Assembly: GCA_963664815.2 (NCBI GenBank) | Contig: CAXXHB010000003.1 | Location: 1-64,000 of the forward strand | DNA from: Spirochaetota bacterium | GTDB taxonomy: Bacteria; Spirochaetota; UBA4802; UBA5550 | Direction of reading: 5' to 3' | Length of the DNA stretch: 64,000 nt | Shown here: piece by piece, positions 5,177 to 14,624 of the stretch | Position numbering within the stretch: position 1 is the stretch's first letter | How the letters are laid out: every line of letters starts with the position of its first letter | Made by a program: the position numbers and the translations under genes | The notes under the pieces: model-generated | The model's input: the letters and a program-made list of their open reading frames with translations, nothing else | Databases searched by the model: none | Told to the model about the DNA's origin: nothing

Positions 5177-6988
5177 ATGAAAAAAATCAAGAATATTGCA
5201 ATAATCGCTCATGTTGACCATGGCAAAACAACTCTTGTTGACGGCATGCTGCGTCAGTCGGGAATTTTCAGAAGCAACCAGCATATTGAAGAGAGGGTTA
5301 TGGATTCCAACGATCTTGAAAAGGAGAGGGGAATTACAATTTTTTCCAAGAATGCATCAATCCATTATAAAGATTTTAAAATAAACATTGTTGATACTCC
5401 TGGACATGCTGATTTTGGCGGTGAAGTTCAGAGAATTATGAAGATGGTCGATTGCGTCCTTCTTATAGTTGACGCGTTTGAAGGGCCTATGCCGCAGACC
5501 AAGTATGTTTTAAAAAAATCTCTTGAGATTGGATTAAGCCCGATTGTTGTAATAAACAAAATAGACAGGCCAAACAGCAGACCTCACGAGGTTCTTGATA
5601 TGATATTTGACCTTTTTGTGGAGCTCAACGCAACAAATGAGCAGCTCGATTTTCCGGTTATTTATGCGTCGGCCAAGCAGGGGATAGCGAAGTATGAGGT
5701 TGATGATCTGAATGAGGACCTGAAGCCGTTATTTGAAACCATAATAAAAAATGTCAAAGAACCTGAGGGGGAGATTGATCTGCCTCTTCAGTTCCTGGTA
5801 TCTGCAATAGATTATGATAACTACCTTGGACGAATCGGTACAGGTAAAATTCACAACGGGCAGATTACTGCAGGGGACATCATTACGCTGATGAAAAGGG
5901 ATGGAGAAAATATACAATCCAAGGTTTCAAAAATATTTGTATATGAAGGGTTAAAGCGGACAGAAATAAAGAAAGCTTACGCCGGGGATATTATATCAGT
6001 TGCCGGAATTGAAGGTATAGATGTTGGAGTAACACTTGCTGATAAGGACTTCCCTGTGGCGCTTAAGGCTATAGATATTGATGAACCGACTCTTGCAATG
6101 ACATTCATGCAGAACGATTCACCGTTTATGGGGCAGGAGGGGAAATATGTAACTTCAAGGCACTTATGGGAGAGGCTCCAGCGTGAAGTGCAGTCTAATG
6201 TTAGTATTGCCGTGGAAAGATCCGAATCCGGGGACGAGTTTGTTGTCAAGGGGCGGGGAGAGCTTCAGATGTCAATACTGATTGAGAACATGAGACGTGA
6301 AGGATATGAATTCCAGGTTTCAAAGCCTGAGGTTATTTTTAAAGAAAAGAACGGGAAAAAGACCGAACCGATAGAGCTTGCCGTTGTTGATGTTGCTGAT
6401 GAATTTGTCGGTGTTGTAATTGAAAAGATGGGTGTCCGTAAGGGTGAAATGATAAATATGAAGCAGGGGGATGACGGCTATACCAGAATAGAATTCAAGG
6501 TTCCCTCCAGAGGGCTTATCGGTTTCAGGGGACAGTTTCTGACAGATACCCGCGGTACCGGAGTACTGAATCAGAGCTTTTATGAATATGATTTTTACAA
6601 GGGAACTATCCCCGGGAGAGGTAAGGGAGTACTTCTTGCCATGGAACCTGGTTCCTCTGTACCTTTTGCCCTTGATAATCTTCAGGAAAGAGGGGAATTG
6701 TTTATTCCCTCGGGTGTAAACGTTTACGAGGGGATGATTGTCGGAGAGAACAGCCGGGAAGGGGACATGATTGTTAACGTCTGTAAAAAGAAGGCGTTAA
6801 CCAATATGCGGGCTTCAGGATCTGACGATGCTGTAAGGCTTATCCCTCACAGGGAGTTCAGTCTGGAGCAGGCCCTTGAATATATTGCAGATGATGAACT
6901 ACTTGAAATTACACCTCTTTCCGTCAGGATGAGGAAGAAGATCCTCCGGGAGCTTGACAGAAAAAGAACCAGCAGAAGATCGGAATAG
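5177..6988 (+). CDS. typA: Translational GTPase TypA/BipA
   Basis: [22 protein letters not shown] motifs; C-terminal [11 protein letters not shown] and [18 protein letters not shown] signatures. Confidence 0.97.
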
Positions 6989-9864: not shown

Positions 9865-10122
9865 GTGTACATTTTATCGGTTGATTTCAACGTACCTGCC
9901 GGCGCAGTACACCTTATGGTTATTCTGCAGGTGATATCGGGCGGCCTTGGCACACCGGAGATTACTGTAAGACCGGATGTATATACCGGGACAAAGCCTG
10001 TACAGATAACAGGTCTGACAGGCGGTTCAGAACTTTTTGTATACTGCATAAGGACGGACGCGCCCTATGCCGGAGCGGTAAAGGTTTCTGAATCGGCAGG
10101 CTTCAAGGTTACTGTTGCTTAA
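9865..10122 (+). CDS. Small ORF, possibly the 3' remnant of a beta-rich surface-protein gene
   Basis: Protein-like G/T/V-rich composition and a strong terminator downstream, but GTG start with no clear RBS. Confidence 0.35.
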   Translation: MYILSVDFNVPAGAVHLMVILQVISGGLGTPEITVRPDVYTGTKPVQITGLTGGSELFVYCIRTDAPYAGAVKVSESAGFKVTVA

Positions 10123-10337: not shown

Positions 10338-10772
10338 ATGGCAAAAGTAGTTTTCAGTAAAGAAGTGGATGTTGAAGAATTGAGGAGGAGGGGGGTAAGG
10401 ATTTTTAAAAGGGGCGGAAACATATATCTCAATTCAGCGCCGTCAGAGACGTTTCTGAATATTAAAGGCCGGCCGGGTGGTACCGGTGAAGCGAGAGGGG
10501 ATAGGTATTATCTGCTCTGCCCTTATTGCGGTGAGTATTTAACGGTTATGGACCCGTTTTTATCAATGACCGAAAGGGATCTTATCTGCAGCAACAGAAG
10601 ATGCGAAAAGAGTGTAAGCCTTTATGAACTGTTTAATTTCAATAAAGATGTTATAGAAACGTTTATAAGGGATAAATACAAATCCACCAGGAAATTTCCT
10701 GTTATTGACCCTGAAGCTGAATTTAAAAAGCTGCTAAATGAGGTTGTTAAGAATAATGGGGATATAAACTGA
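10338..10772 (+). CDS. Hypothetical protein with putative zinc ribbon
   Basis: AGGGGG RBS; CPYC-x17-CSNRRC. Confidence 0.7.
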   Translation: MAKVVFSKEVDVEELRRRGVRIFKRGGNIYLNSAPSETFLNIKGRPGGTGEARGDRYYLLCPYCGEYLTVMDPFLSMTERDLICSNRRCEKSVSLYELFNFNKDVIETFIRDKYKSTRKFPVIDPEAEFKKLLNEVVKNNGDIN

Positions 10773-11111
10773 AGTTTATCTTTTTGAAATGTTTTAAATA
10801 AAGCCTGCTTTTTACCTGCACGTTTATAACTATCAACAGCTGTTATTTTTCTGTCATCTATCTTATGACCGGAGGGAGGATATATCCTCCACCGGTTATG
10901 GCCGGGTTAAGGTATTTTTTAGACACAATAAGTTTTATGTGCAGCGTTATGCTGTGATTTAAGTCTGATTGGACGGTTTTTTTGGGGGAGACAGGTTTTA
11001 GTATTTGACAATGGGGTTTTTATTTGTATAGGGTTATGTGTAATTATAATGTTTAAATACCGGTGAACCGGGTATCCCGGTATACAGATTCAGGGCAGGA
11101 TTTTTAGCTAC

Positions 11112-11220
11112 GAGCCGGGCATCTCGATAAGATTCCGGTGCCTCGATACACCGACGAGGTCGGCACTCGGCAACCGGAATCACACATTCGACTGGGCTCA
11201 GTGCGGCGCTCGATGACCGG
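11112..11220 (+). repeat. REP-like composite palindrome A1
   Basis: 109 bp, 8 differences from 11887-11995; outer CGGGCATC...GATGACCG stem with nested hairpins. Confidence 0.9.
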
Positions 11221-11346
11221 TGGATTGTATCGAGGGGCCCGAATGGAGCAAAGTGATTACCAGGTTCCAATACTTGAAGTGGCGGGATCGTCGAGTACGG
11301 TTGATGATATACTGAAGATGGAAGCACTGTCAAAAGATAAGCTGCA

Positions 11347-11422
11347 GAGCCGGGCATCTCGGTACACCGCCTTGTAGCGGCTCATAAAACTTGAAGTATT
11401 TCAGGCGGCACTCGATGACCGG
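11347..11422 (+). repeat. REP-like palindrome C
   Basis: GAGCCGGGCATCTCGGTACA-CCGCCT...AGGCGG-CACTCGATGACCGG, same termini as A1/A2. Confidence 0.85.
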
Positions 11423-11467
11423 ACTTATTGTGAGAAGTACAGTAGTGGCATTTATTGGTTTGCGTTG

Positions 11468-11545
11468 AGGCGGTCATCGAGTGACAGCGCGAAGAAGTGA
11501 GGGCTATTGCGGCGAGTTTATTGCGCTGTTGTATCGAGATGCTCG
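11468..11545 (-). repeat. REP-like palindrome B1, inverted relative to A/C
   Basis: CGGTCATCGAGTG-ACAGCGC...GCGCTGT-TGTATCGAGATGCTCG. Confidence 0.85.
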
Positions 11546-11592
11546 CATGCAAAACATAAGGTTTTGACAGTGCCGCATGGAGCAATATAATT

Positions 11593-11874
11593 ATGGCTTA
11601 CATGTACATACTTAAATGTGACGATGGAACGTTTTATACAGGCAGTACTGTTGATCTGGCTAAACGTTTTGAACAGCACCAGGCAGGTGAAGGTGCAAAT
11701 TATACAGCAAGACGTATTCCGGTTGAACTTGTTTACTATGAAGTTTATGAATCTGTTGCTGATGCTTTTAAAAGAGAGAAGCAAATTCAGAACTGGAGCC
11801 ATGCTAAAAAGAGGGCGCTGATAGAAGAAAATTATTGTGATCTGAGTATTCTGGCGAAGAAGAAGTTTGAGTGA
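11593..11874 (+). CDS. Small stand-alone GIY-YIG nuclease (UPF0213/YhbQ-YazA-like)
   Basis: YMYIL...FYTGST, catalytic Arg (KRFEQH), GANYT, REKQIQNWSHAKK; GGAG RBS. Confidence 0.92.
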   Translation: MAYMYILKCDDGTFYTGSTVDLAKRFEQHQAGEGANYTARRIPVELVYYEVYESVADAFKREKQIQNWSHAKKRALIEENYCDLSILAKKKFE

Positions 11875-11886
11875 AATTGATGCGGT

Positions 11887-11995
11887 GAGCCGGGCATCTC
11901 GGTACGATTCCGTTGCCTCGATACACCGACGAGGTCGGCACTCGGCAAACGGAATCACACATTCGGCTGGGCTCAGTGCACCGCTCGATGGCCGG
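11887..11995 (+). repeat. REP-like composite palindrome A2
   Basis: Direct copy of 11112-11220 with a compensatory stem change. Confidence 0.9.
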
Positions 11996-12040
11996 ATTTT
12001 TAGTATCAAGTTAATGAATCACCTTTACTTGTTTAAATTA

Positions 12041-12118
12041 AGGCGGTCACCGAGTGACAGCGCGAATGAGTAAAGGTTATAGTGGTGAGTTCGGTGCGCT
12101 GTTGTACCGAGGTGCCCG
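12041..12118 (-). repeat. REP-like palindrome B2
   Basis: Same length (78 bp) and same stems as B1; loop diverged. Confidence 0.85.
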
Positions 12119-12415
12119 AATGAGAACAGAATGAGTTTTGAGTTTTATAAAAAGTGTGGATTTTTTCCTGCAGGAAAGCAGATTGATGAGAAGATGGGGG
12201 AGTGGAGATATTGATGAGGTTGACGTATCAGGTTTTATCCAAAAGCAATAATTGAAAAAGCATGCGGTTCTTTAAAGGGGAGCAGGTTTAATACAGATAC
12301 TTTATTAAAACAAAAAGCAGATAGATAAGGAGCTTGAACGTTGAAGGAAGTATATTTTCTTGATGCCTGTTCCGTTATCACCTGAAGAATCTGTAATATA
12401 ACAAAGGCGGTTAAA

Positions 12416-12745
12416 ATGATTTCAAACGAAATGATTATACAGAGAATGAAAGAATCAATCATATCAGCCCTTGGAGGCAGAATAAAAAAAGTATTATTAT
12501 ATGGTTCTGTGGCTCGGGGTGATAATACGGCAGAATCTGATGTCGATTGTATTCTGATTGTTGATGATATAGATACTCATGTTAATGATGCCATCGATGA
12601 ATTCTCCGCGAATATGCTGATTAATTATAGCACAGTATTTTCCATTGTACCGGTTAAAGAAGAAAACTTTGATAACTGGAAATATAATCCTTTGTTTATT
12701 AATGTAAACAGGGATGGAGTGGTCTTATGGCAGAAATCAGCCTGA
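12416..12745 (+). CDS. Minimal nucleotidyltransferase (MNT) antitoxin
   Basis: LYGSVARGD...SDVD motif; C-terminal INVNRDGVVL. Confidence 0.88.
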   Translation: MISNEMIIQRMKESIISALGGRIKKVLLYGSVARGDNTAESDVDCILIVDDIDTHVNDAIDEFSANMLINYSTVFSIVPVKEENFDNWKYNPLFINVNRDGVVLWQKSA

Positions 12746-12905: not shown

Positions 12906-13160
12906 TGAAAACGCATTATATATTCCACCTCCAAACAATTCGTGAATATAATCATATATCTCCCGGTGACTGAGTGTGTGATGACAGTGATATACTCTAT
13001 CATGATTTAATTTTCGATACTGGCCGGTAAATCCTGCTCATCCTGTAATCATGAAAATCATGGTTAAGACAGTATAAAACATTAAGGAAATTGTTGACGA
13101 ATCTGAAGATACGGGTGATGATCCAGGTATTGCTGAATCCATTATAGGGGATGTTGTTTA

Positions 13161-14624
13161 ATGGTTTTTTTAAATGAATCGGAACTTGTAAGCCTTTTTA
13201 AGGAACTCAGAATGCTCCCATCTGAAGCAGAATGGGTTGAGTTTAAACAGGACAATACCAATCCCGTAGAGATCGGAGAATACATTTCCGCATTGTCCAA
13301 TTCCGCTGCAATGTGTGGTAAAACCTCGGCATACCTTGTATGGGGCATTGATGATAAAACGCATGAAGTTACAGGCACCACTTTTAAGCCTGCTTTAAAA
13401 AAAACCGGCGGCGAGGAATTAGAAAACTGGCTGCTCAGGCTGCTTTCCCCCAAGATCAATTTCAGGTTCTATGAAGCCGAAGTTGAAGGTAAAAATGTGG
13501 TGGTTTTAGAGATCGCCAGGGCTTTTCGTCACCCGGTGCAATTCCAGGGCAATGAATACATCAGAATCGGATCATATAAAAGAAAATTGAAAGACTTCCC
13601 TGATAAAGAGAGAGAACTCTGGCGGATTTTTGATTCCATAACCTTTGAAGAGGATATAGCATCATCAAATCGTTCTGCCGATGAGGTGCTGCAGCTTCTT
13701 GATTATCCCTCCTACTTTGATCTTCTTGGTATTCATCTCCCTGATAGAAAAGAGGGTATTCTTGACGCCCTGTGCATCGAAAGGATGATAAATAAGAATG
13801 ACAGGGGCTTGTGGGATATTACAAATCTTGGAGCAATACTTTTTGCAAAGAAGATTGAAAATTTCGATTCGATTAAAAGAAAAGCTGTCCGCGTAATTGT
13901 ATATAAAGGTTCAGGCAGGGTTGATACAATAAGGGAACAGAAGGGTAACAAGGGGTATGCCTCCGGTTTTGAAGGTCTTATTCAGTTTATTAATACACTG
14001 CTCCCGATGAATGAAGTGATTGAAAAGGCTTTAAGGAAAAATGTAACAATGTATCCTGAAATTTCTGTCAGAGAACTTGTGGTCAACGCAATAATACACC
14101 AGGATTTCTATATTACAGGGGCAGGTCCAATGATTGAGATATTCGACGACAGGATGGAGATTACAAATCCCGGCAAACCTCTGGTCGCTACAGACAGGTT
14201 TCTTGATAGTCCTCCGCGATCGAGAAATGAAATGCTGGCGTCATTTATGCGGAGAATCGGTGTCTGCGAGGAGAGAGGGAGCGGTATTGATAAAGTTATA
14301 TTTCAGACTGAGCTGTATCAGCTTCCGGCGCCAGTATTTGAAACGACTGATGATAATACGCGGGCAATACTTTTTTCCCATAAATCCTTTTCCGATATGA
14401 ATAGAGAAGACCGTATAAGAGCATGTTATCAGCATTCCTGTCTCAAGTATGTTTCACGGCAGTATATGACAAATACCAGTCTACGTGAGCGCTTTGGCAT
14501 AAAAGAGCAGAACAGTGCTATGGCATCACGTATTATAAAAGATACTGTAGAGAAAAATCTCATACATCTGTCTGATCCTGAAGCATCAAGGAAATACACA
14601 AAATATGTGCCGTACTGGGGTTAA
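13161..14624 (+). CDS. AlbA_2 (Schlafen-like) + HATPase_c_4 (RecG-C-like) + HTH protein
   Basis: EWVEFK...ISALSN...LVWGIDD; RELVVNAIIHQD, EITNPG, SRNE, CEERGSGIDK; C-terminal MTNTSLRERF...YVPYW. Confidence 0.88.
   Translation: MVFLNESELVSLFKELRMLPSEAEWVEFKQDNTNPVEIGEYISALSNSAAMCGKTSAYLVWGIDDKTHEVTGTTFKPALKKTGGEELENWLLRLLSPKINFRFYEAEVEGKNVVVLEIARAFRHPVQFQGNEYIRIGSYKRKLKDFPDKERELWRIFDSITFEEDIASSNRSADEVLQLLDYPSYFDLLGIHLPDRKEGILDALCIERMINKNDRGLWDITNLGAILFAKKIENFDSIKRKAVRVIVYKGSGRVDTIREQKGNKGYASGFEGLIQFINTLLPMNEVIEKALRKNVTMYPEISVRELVVNAIIHQDFYITGAGPMIEIFDDRMEITNPGKPLVATDRFLDSPPRSRNEMLASFMRRIGVCEERGSGIDKVIFQTELYQLPAPVFETTDDNTRAILFSHKSFSDMNREDRIRACYQHSCLKYVSRQYMTNTSLRERFGIKEQNSAMASRIIKDTVEKNLIHLSDPEASRKYTKYVPYWG

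Follow-up and report, generated by a model that had tools for sequence, protein, structure and literature searches.

It was asked whether a small GIY-YIG nuclease gene and the inverted pairs of palindromic repeats on its two sides belong together and, if so, in what kind of system. The locus lies at positions 11,112 to 12,122 of a 64,000-nt stretch of DNA from a Spirochaetota bacterium (GTDB lineage Bacteria; Spirochaetota; UBA4802; UBA5550), namely positions 1 to 64,000 of the forward strand of contig CAXXHB010000003.1 in GenBank assembly GCA_963664815.2; this whole stretch is called the window hereafter. A first-pass annotation of the window had compared the repeats with repetitive extragenic palindromic (REP) sequences and their doublets (REPINs), and had proposed that the nuclease takes the place of the RAYT transposase. 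The present analysis bore out that the repeats are genuine inverted doublets of the REPIN kind and that they are linked to the GIY-YIG gene: related hairpins flank homologous genes across phyla, and the type of hairpin follows the sub-type of the nuclease. We consider it rather probable that gene and repeats form a horizontally moving cognate pair resembling the Ssn systems, in which the nuclease would recognise hairpins with the loop TCGATAC/ACTC in single-stranded DNA (ssDNA) and nick nearby, and the repeats would multiply by break-induced copying or recombination.

Layout of the repeats around the nuclease gene

The gene and its repeats are listed in Table 1. All five full elements and the half copy that the first-pass annotation had placed around the gene were present at their coordinates. 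Inverted doublets with conserved spacers stand on both sides, C/B1 upstream and A2/B2 downstream, and the distances were as had been claimed, with 47 bp from the core end of B1 to the ATG and 12 bp from the stop codon to the start of A2. The description of a GC-rich patch in an AT-rich background also held, the G+C fraction being 0.47-0.56 at 11000-11600 and 0.51-0.52 at 11800-12100 as against 0.30-0.40 in the flanks. With up to two mismatches allowed, the end motif CGGGCATCTCGRTA was found nine times in the 64-kb window, and seven of these occurrences fell within 11069-12118; 100 shuffled controls gave a mean of 0.43, and none of them reached nine.

Table 1. Features of the GIY-YIG cassette, in window coordinates.
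Feature	Position	Strand	Description
Element A1	11112-11224	+	Composite type-1 hairpin; nested complete type-1 module at 11135-11177
Half copy	11226-11244	-	5' half (CGGGCCCCTCGATACA, minus strand) from the CCCC/GGGG subfamily of type-1 elements
Element C	11347-11425	+	Type-1 hairpin; left arm of the upstream inverted doublet C/B1
Element B1	11465-11549	-	Type-1 hairpin; right arm of the upstream doublet
Promoter-like site	11564-11591	+	TTGACA-16 nt-TATAAT; 12/12 consensus positions, by consensus matching only
GIY-YIG nuclease gene	11593-11874	+	Intact; 93 aa, single domain, UPF0213/Slx1-like type; C-terminal tail LAKKKFE
Element A2	11887-11999	+	Composite type-1 hairpin; nested module at 11910-11952; left arm of the downstream doublet
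Element B2	12038-12122	-	Type-1 hairpin; right arm of the downstream doublet

A1 and A2 shared 93% identity over 109 nt, and the segment from the end of C through B1 shared 73% over 139 nt with that from the end of A2 through B2. The elements fold into an outer stem (CGGgCATC/GATGaCCG), an asymmetric internal loop and an inner stem-loop of free sequence, and the internal loop is conserved, its 5' strand reading TCGRTAC(A) and its 3' strand (C)ACTC. The outer stem of B2 carries a compensatory change, CACC/GGTG versus CATC/GATG in the other copies. The nested module of A1 was the best match (E 6.8e-7) of a covariance model, R1, which was seeded with 46 elements, 45 of them from other genomes. 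A1 also contains a segment at 11187-11201 (TTCGACTGGGCTCAG) that resembles the loop of the type-2 repeat described below and that was left unmatched by a descriptor with a 4-bp stem. The CCCC/GGGG subfamily from which the half copy derives is scattered elsewhere in the host genome as well. No Rfam family was matched at gathering score in the window, and only chance-level matches were obtained at 10700-12500.

Hairpins beside homologous nuclease genes

When 122 genomes of the same order were surveyed with a protein match threshold of E<=1e-10, a match was obtained in 32, with 0/7 among the congeners. A profile scan with one genome per species returned at least 581 loci in more than 10 phyla, of which the best 80 (55-70% identical) were analysed. 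These 80 came from Bacteroidota, Chlorobi/Ignavibacteriota, Chloroflexota, Cyanobacteria, Actinomycetota, Spirochaetota, Fibrobacterota, Nitrospirota, Verrucomicrobia and others; four of them are the same stretches as loci of the order survey and were kept in the descriptor counts given here and dropped from the tail and SRM counts given further below.

Two types of hairpin were distinguished at these loci. In type 1, a stem encloses the internal loop TCGATAC/(Y)ACTC round an inner hairpin of free sequence, and in type 2, a stem is capped by an apical loop TCGA..CTC. A count of 8-mers made with no prior motif placed TCGATACG within 400 bp of 30/80 genes versus 3/80 far flanks. The type-1 descriptor gave 140 matches in the near zone (within 600 bp of the gene; 90.7 kb) and 11 in the far zone (beyond 800 bp; 97.8 kb), and the type-2 descriptor gave 209 and 22, respectively, with 0.5 in the shuffles for either type. 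Type 1 was found near the gene at 36 of the 80 loci, and on both sides of it at 21. Counted by locus within 600 bp, 30 carried type 1 only, 34 type 2 only, six both and 10 neither; that is, the palindromes that the first-pass annotation had expected beside homologous nucleases were present, as type 1 or type 2, at 70 of the 80 cross-phylum loci. Upstream, the median distance from the nearest element to the ATG was 62 bp; downstream, that from the stop codon to the nearest element was 17 bp. The repeat unit measured 33-54 nt in the relatives versus 75-113 nt in the window, whose elements are elaborated versions of this short unit.

The covariation of its pairs argues that the type-1 hairpin is under selection, because the inner helix was paired and covarying although the descriptor did not demand it; 75% of it was paired, and double-sided changes were seen at 4/4 pairs. 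The covariation score was 0.588, compared with 0.231 in shuffles and 0.07-0.18 in slid registers, and of the outer stem in this alignment, the inner four pairs were paired by design and the outermost four about half paired.

Among 20 related loci, no Rfam match was obtained except the unrelated Flavo-1, 1 kb from the gene. This match lay in a Leptospira locus (L083:437-515), approximately 1 kb upstream of the GIY-YIG gene, and scored 44.7 bits versus a gathering score of 42; its sequence is unlike type 1. Pedo-repair, a motif that may lie beside small GIY-YIG genes, gave no Rfam match. A link to tRNA was considered and rejected, as zero tRNA genes were present in the window and in nine tested loci.

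Repeat type follows the C-terminal tail of the nuclease

The expectation that the repeat type co-varies with the nuclease clade was borne out. Classes of C-terminal tail were drawn from 15 sequences, and 76 loci were held out of that definition. The AKKxF tail was accompanied by type 1 in 38/38 cases over all 92 rows and in 29/29 among the held-out loci. With the ECxN(x)TH tail, type 2 was found in 24/28 over all rows (none in four, and type 1 alone in zero) and in 20/24 of the held-out cases, again with zero type 1. GIY-YIG genes of the same order with an NPxWxDL tail had SRM/NTS-like repeats, known from the Ssn systems compared below, at 21 of 30 loci, and type 1 and type 2 at 1/30 each; within the clade of the window protein, SRM/NTS-like repeats occurred at 5/91 loci. 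The C-terminal tail predicts the repeat type within the clade, and the three repeat types pair with three nuclease sub-types.

Gene and repeats were also present and absent together. At least three R1 matches were found in 11/11 order genomes with an AKKxF-type gene and in 0/7 order genomes with other tails; among the 11, G062, in which a gene with an ECxN tail has a type-1 element upstream, was counted by its type-1 neighbours, and the R1 seed had taken a few elements from most of these genomes. The congeners had neither the gene (0/7) nor, in five of them, any R1 match, the other two showing one weak match each. The host thus holds gene and repeats jointly, and in its congeners the gene is absent and the repeats are nearly so.

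Such an association might also arise if gene and repeats were independent selfish or neutral elements that gather in the same permissive accessory regions. The neighbours of the gene are accessory ones (a nucleotidyltransferase gene and a Schlafen-AlbA_2/ATPase gene at the window locus, RhuM and HigB genes near a remnant on contig C2), other unrelated repeats lie nearby, and 20/104 genomes hold repeats without the gene, all of which would suit such hitch-hiking. However, gene and repeats stand too close together for it, and too uniformly so from phylum to phylum (median distances of 62 and 17 bp; near matches in excess of far ones by a factor of 14), and it does not provide for the specificity with which the three repeat types go with the three sub-types of nuclease. 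We regard independent gathering as very improbable.

The nuclease and the expression of its gene

In the 93-aa protein, PF01541 was matched over residues 2-73 (E 3.1e-17) and no second domain was found. The best matches in the PDB were two UPF0213 proteins, 1zg2 (BH0048; E 6.7e-14, 39% identity) and 1ywl (EF2693; 2.8e-11). The predicted structure (mean predicted local distance difference test score, pLDDT, 90.4) consisted of one GIY-YIG fold and a short C-terminal helix, and the model was matched by the folds of 1zg2, 1ywl, HIGLE, Slx1 (root-mean-square deviation 1.6-2.4 A over about 72 residues), UvrC-N and I-TevI. Residues Y5, Y15, R25, H29 and E62 were invariant in 15/15 clade members, and we take them to be the counterparts of the catalytic residues of I-TevI. 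By these comparisons the protein can be assigned to the GIY-YIG superfamily's UPF0213/Slx1-like branch, and it keeps the predicted catalytic Tyr, Tyr, Arg, His and Glu. No NCBIfam family was reached above its cut-off, the group I intron endonuclease family scoring 17.9 bits against a cut-off of 56.

The cassette is set in a chromosomal intergenic region. The -10 hexamer of the promoter-like site ends 1 nt ahead of the ATG at 11593. For this reason the transcript may lack a leader and begin at the next ATG (11602), which encodes M4, a residue nearly invariant in the clade alignment. No canonical terminator was found in a search of the locus for terminator-like sites.

These features bear on the question of whether the hairpins work as RNA, that is, as terminators, mRNA stabilisers or transcript regulators that travel with the gene and are not recognised by the nuclease. 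According to Di Nocera et al. (2013, PMC3733652), REPs in general act as RNA elements and as terminators, and A2/B2 start 12 bp past the stop codon at a locus where no canonical terminator was seen. At the cross-phylum loci, however, the two orientations were about equally frequent to either side of the gene, with 43 minus versus 40 plus elements upstream and 40 plus versus 28 minus elements downstream, and the conserved loop would therefore be in the transcript only half the time. The upstream elements would moreover lie outside the mRNA if the promoter at 11564-11591 is used, no Rfam family was matched, and a function in RNA leaves it unexplained that the hairpin type tracks the tail of the enzyme. 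A purely RNA-level role accordingly appears improbable.

Copies in the host genome and signs of mobility

The host genome comprises 5.2 Mb in three contigs, C2 and C3 among them, with 38% GC and a completeness of 96.2%. It was searched with a structural descriptor in which the first strand of a 4-bp stem is followed by TCGRTA, at most 120 nt, CTC and the complement of that strand. As a result, 61 matches were obtained versus 22-28 in shuffles, and 23 were clear family members. In total, the host holds at least 22 elements at 11 loci, including a copy on C2 that the descriptor missed, and model R1 recovered 14 of these copies at E<=0.01. The genome-wide count of the motif that the first-pass annotation had proposed thus describes a low-copy family of about 22 elements.

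The subfamily with CATC stems (A, B and C) was found at three host loci only, the window being one. At C3:1804036-1804238 stands a C/B doublet without a gene, which is 87% identical over 203 bp to 11347-11549, spacer included. At C2:659902-660077, a B element is followed 14 bp on by a truncated remnant of the gene (25 codons). The CCCC/GGGG subfamily was located at C2:313607 and at C3:1361190-1361932, 2570458, 2570696, 3212606 and 3700481, and the first of these C3 sites holds six type-1 hairpins with CCCC/GGGG stems, each within a unit of a 141-bp tandem repeat. Elements of a longer form lie at 940680, 1033376 and 3498961.

Three further small GIY-YIG genes are present in the host. The protein encoded at C3:216571 is 64% identical to that of the window, and its gene is flanked by a type-2 repeat whose stem is capped by TTCGACTCCGCTCA. 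An Ssn-type gene at C3:3053722-3054018 is flanked by nine (T)GTCATTCC..GGAATC hairpins, and the gene at C3:678557 has no obvious repeats. Separately, C3:2746791-2758021 is occupied by large arrays in which a type-2 hairpin (CGTTTCGACTCCGCTCAACG) recurs in tandem about every 43 bp, and more copies occur at about 25 other loci.

The closest match of the window protein, among the matches listed, was from a metagenome-assembled genome (MAG) of Bacteroidales at 68% identity, compared with 64% for the best within the order. Of 39 protein pairs with at least 80% identity, 28 showed no similarity in their flanks, including cross-phylum pairs at 81-87%. The patchy distribution and the best match in another phylum may be read as signs of horizontal movement, and the host itself holds a decayed second copy of the gene (C2) and a doublet without a gene (C3).

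The proposal of the first-pass annotation was a stricter one, namely that the GIY-YIG protein is a transposase analogous to RAYT that excises and re-inserts the hairpin doublets together with its own gene. The architecture is REPIN-like, C/B1 recurs with its spacer at the gene-less C3 site, repeats stand at 11 host loci and are lacking in the congeners, and the likeness has been raised by the authors of the Ssn study themselves in their Discussion, with reference to IS elements and REP/RAYT (Chenal et al. 2025, PMC11893778). No RAYT or IS200/605 gene elsewhere in the host could account for the repeats, a case that the first-pass annotation had named as refuting its reading: the 96.2%-complete genome gave zero PF01797 genes in a search that was positive in 6/14 control genomes, and the host thus has no HUH transposase of this kind. 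The chemistry of the enzyme family is awkward for such a role. GIY-YIG enzymes such as I-TevI, UvrC and Hpy188I hydrolyse DNA and form no covalent 5'-phosphotyrosine intermediate, in contrast to HUH Y1 transposases, and for this reason they cannot carry out strand transfer alone. The copy number is also low, and many elements are members of tandem arrays, as the six at the 141-bp period, a pattern that points to recombination or replication slippage rather than transposition. Empty sites in related genomes, looked for in the congeners and at the flanks of solo elements as had been advised, were not found there, nor was a target duplication or a circle junction. Nothing in these results bears out a nuclease that spreads the hairpins and itself in the manner of RAYT, and we hold a strict RAYT analogue to be unlikely.

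Comparison with known systems

The first-pass annotation knew of no characterised system of this kind, and in this it was overtaken by the publication of Ssn/SRM in 2025 (PMC11893778). According to that paper, a single GIY-YIG domain (CDD cd10448) makes up SsnA of Neisseria meningitidis and each of three homologues, these proteins bind and cut the flanking NTS/SRM hairpin as ssDNA only, and SRM lie near 71% of homologues and on both sides of 42%. The window locus resembles these systems in its single-domain GIY-YIG protein (93 aa, versus about 94 aa) and in two-sided hairpin repeats that recur in the genome, and its clade resembles them in a wide and patchy phyletic spread and in the co-variation of repeat and enzyme. 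The repeats differ, SRM being simple hairpins of 20-50 nt with a 5' (C/T)GTC tag, whereas those of the window are two-tier structures of 75-113 nt with the loop TCGATAC/ACTC. The proteins differ as well, with NPxWxDL as the Ssn-type tail versus LAKKxF in the window protein, which is closest to UPF0213/Slx1-type structures.

In agreement with this, the published SRM motif, HGTCWYN(0-2)YYVSBRHN(0-5)WNVSBRGN(0-2)RNCYNB, was found zero times within 1 kb of any GIY-YIG gene of the host, and the 14 matches in the genome compare with 14-17 in shuffles. It was matched at 4/80 homologue loci. The positive control, L025, an SRM-flanked Ssn-type locus of the same order, gave five matches and holds five near-canonical NTS copies (TGTCATTCCCGCGCAGGCGGGAATCC); its protein is about 38% identical to that of the window (E 8.4e-12). 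UPF0213, cd10456, cd10449 and YhbQ are not mentioned in the main text of PMC11893778. The window locus is a sister variant of the Ssn/SRM systems, with another enzyme branch and another repeat, and not a plain member of them.

The REP/REPIN-RAYT system is said to go back to Nunvar in 2010 and to Bertels and Rainey in 2011. It is like the window locus in having inverted palindromic doublets round a single-copy gene of a presumed cognate enzyme, and gene-less doublets elsewhere, here at C3:1804036-1804238. It is unlike it in the enzyme, which is of the HUH Y1 kind versus GIY-YIG in a host without PF01797, and in the repeats, which are GTAG-tagged palindromes of 20-40 bp in high copy (hundreds) as opposed to elements of 75-113 nt with no terminal GTAG and in tens. 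REPs have been divided into a GTAG super-family, linked to RAYT, and a CGTC super-family with no known transposase (PMC3733652). The latter is like the window family in comprising cross-phylum palindromes without an HUH transposase, and it differs in its terminal CGTC tag, whereas TCGA..CTC is an unpaired internal or apical loop; the CGTC repeats are those now linked to Ssn. The TCGATAC/ACTC repeat fits neither tag, and no description of it was found in print.

Stand-alone domains of the UPF0213/YhbQ/Slx1 kind (1zg2, 1ywl; Slx1, 6sei) are the best matches of the window protein in sequence and fold, and no report of cognate repeats of such proteins was found in the searchable literature. Slx1 is a structure-specific nuclease acting on branched DNA, needs Slx4 and has a RING domain. 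IS200/IS605 TnpA recognises ssDNA hairpins and has an HUH domain, unlike the window protein. Homing endonucleases (I-TevI, Seg) likewise form selfish cassettes of a single GIY-YIG nuclease gene; they have a separate DNA-binding domain and lie in introns, inteins or phages, and neither applies to the window protein. Searches of the literature for GIY-YIG paired with repetitive extragenic palindromic found nothing, and for hairpin-flanked mobile GIY-YIG genes from 2023 on, the Ssn paper was the only relevant find. Four motif strings were met only as chance matches to primers, and two 14-mers occurred nowhere in the literature searched.

Proposed mechanism and its significance

Taken together, the reading that we favour as rather probable is that of a horizontally moving, Ssn-like cognate pair. 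The cassette, a single-domain GIY-YIG gene flanked by its own cognate DNA hairpins, would have been acquired horizontally. By analogy with SsnA, the 93-aa enzyme would bind one strand of the hairpin once the DNA is single-stranded and would nick nearby, and its short C-terminal tail (..LAKKxF) may help to choose the hairpin type. Gene and repeats would pass together between genomes, and within a genome the repeats would multiply to a modest number of doublets and arrays, most likely by break-induced copying or by recombination between repeats rather than by true transposition. The anatomy of the locus, the association of gene and repeats, their co-variation and their joint presence and absence were observed, whereas the part played by the tail, the way in which the repeats spread, and the binding and cutting of hairpins are what we infer.

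Several points weigh against this reading of the locus. The analogy for binding, cleavage and strand choice would have to carry over from a clade that is only about 38% identical. Five switches of tail and repeat were counted on a poorly resolved tree, one of them on a supported branch, and a sign test of the pairing cannot reach significance because the independent switches are too few. At least three R1 matches were also found in 20/104 order genomes in which no clade nuclease was detected, many of these genomes being incomplete MAGs, and 10/80 homologue loci carry neither type of repeat. Model R1 and the descriptors were built in part from the same loci, and the near-gene matches there are partly circular. 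Finally, no empty site, target duplication, excision or circle junction was found in the congeners, at the flanks of solo elements or in contigs. Of the window locus, just the copZ part is present in the congeners, none of them holds the doublet at 1.804 Mb, and the flanks of two solo elements were matched at 65% identity or not at all; insertion boundaries cannot be defined because the divergence is too great.

A wider proposal can be made tentatively, and we would rather doubt it than assert it: UPF0213/Slx1-like nucleases might be the dedicated enzymes of a third super-family of bacterial palindromic repeats, spread over many phyla and separate from both the GTAG/RAYT and the CGTC/Ssn repeats, namely stems with a TCGA..CTC loop, which they would recognise, cut and thereby propagate, with the tail of about 10 residues (LAKKxF, ECxNxTH, NPxWxDL) as a swappable specificity module. 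If this is true, a natural toolkit of tiny, hairpin-addressed ssDNA nucleases would exist, together with a route for REP-like spread that does not use HUH enzymes. To our knowledge, site-specific cutting confined to ssDNA is known of no nucleases other than the Ssn enzymes, whose development as tools is under way. The locus suggests that the logic of Ssn, a tiny nuclease with its own hairpin address, extends to a second and very widespread GIY-YIG branch (at least 581 loci in more than 10 phyla), which uses two further hairpin designs. The three-way match of tail and hairpin offers a cheap and concrete handle on how a 93-residue protein may read DNA structure, and the pairing would give a partner enzyme to a repeat family for which the searchable literature yielded no description.

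Neighbouring and additional features

Three other short repeats lie just 3' of the cassette. That at 12123-12221 has a copy at C3:1803145-1803244 (82%), approximately 890 bp from the gene-less doublet; that at 12240-12378 has a copy at C3:2756119-2756256 (91%); and that at 12998-13071 has copies at four loci, including C3:940600-940641, which adjoins a long CCCC element. Two accessory genes lie in the same region, a nucleotidyltransferase gene (12416-12745) of a type known from toxin-antitoxin pairs and a gene with Schlafen AlbA_2 and HATPase_c_4 domains (13161-14624). An unrelated repeat of about 120 bp (L038:46-166, equal to C3:1802581-1802701) has dozens of copies in the host and is present in most congeners, with 37-45 matches each in four of them.

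Upstream of the cassette, the stretches 9873-9979 and 10825-11059 have paralogues that adjoin each other on C2 (C2:655629-655737 and 655779-655997). These stand 3.9 kb upstream of the cassette remnant on that contig, and the two loci may share a larger common backbone. Between the two window segments lies an open reading frame (ORF) of 144 aa (10338-10772) with no Pfam family. The neighbourhood of the C2 remnant contains a RhuM gene and a HigB toxin gene (L166:2273-2947 and 5876-6166).

A contig of sequencing run X4, which belongs to another study, matches 11286-11656 exactly, then departs from the nuclease gene after codon 21 and runs on into the sequence of C3:3973690; another population may have a different junction within the gene. 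The uncovered parts in this run carry no evidential weight. A joint in run X3 that goes back 775 was set aside, being as expected from an assembly loop via the A1/A2 repeat.

Among the homologues, the GIY-YIG domain of the clade was found in frame inside the type I restriction gene hsdR at loci from four phyla (L068:550-3276, L085:547-3270, L090:595-3276 and L111:2-2212), where it stands between the ..FQTFMSG segment and the DECH helicase motif in one unbroken ORF. Type-2 repeats apparently encode the linkers of the insert, whose peptides include PELVEG and FDFAQGRP. Remoter GIY-YIG domains, with about 37-41% identity, continue into a C-terminal fusion partner of approximately 200-270 aa in two groups of loci (L020:1504-2487, L022:1513-2409 and L023:1286-2323; L024:763-1731 and L027:703-1734); by eye, these regions are HsdS-like in one group and different in the other.

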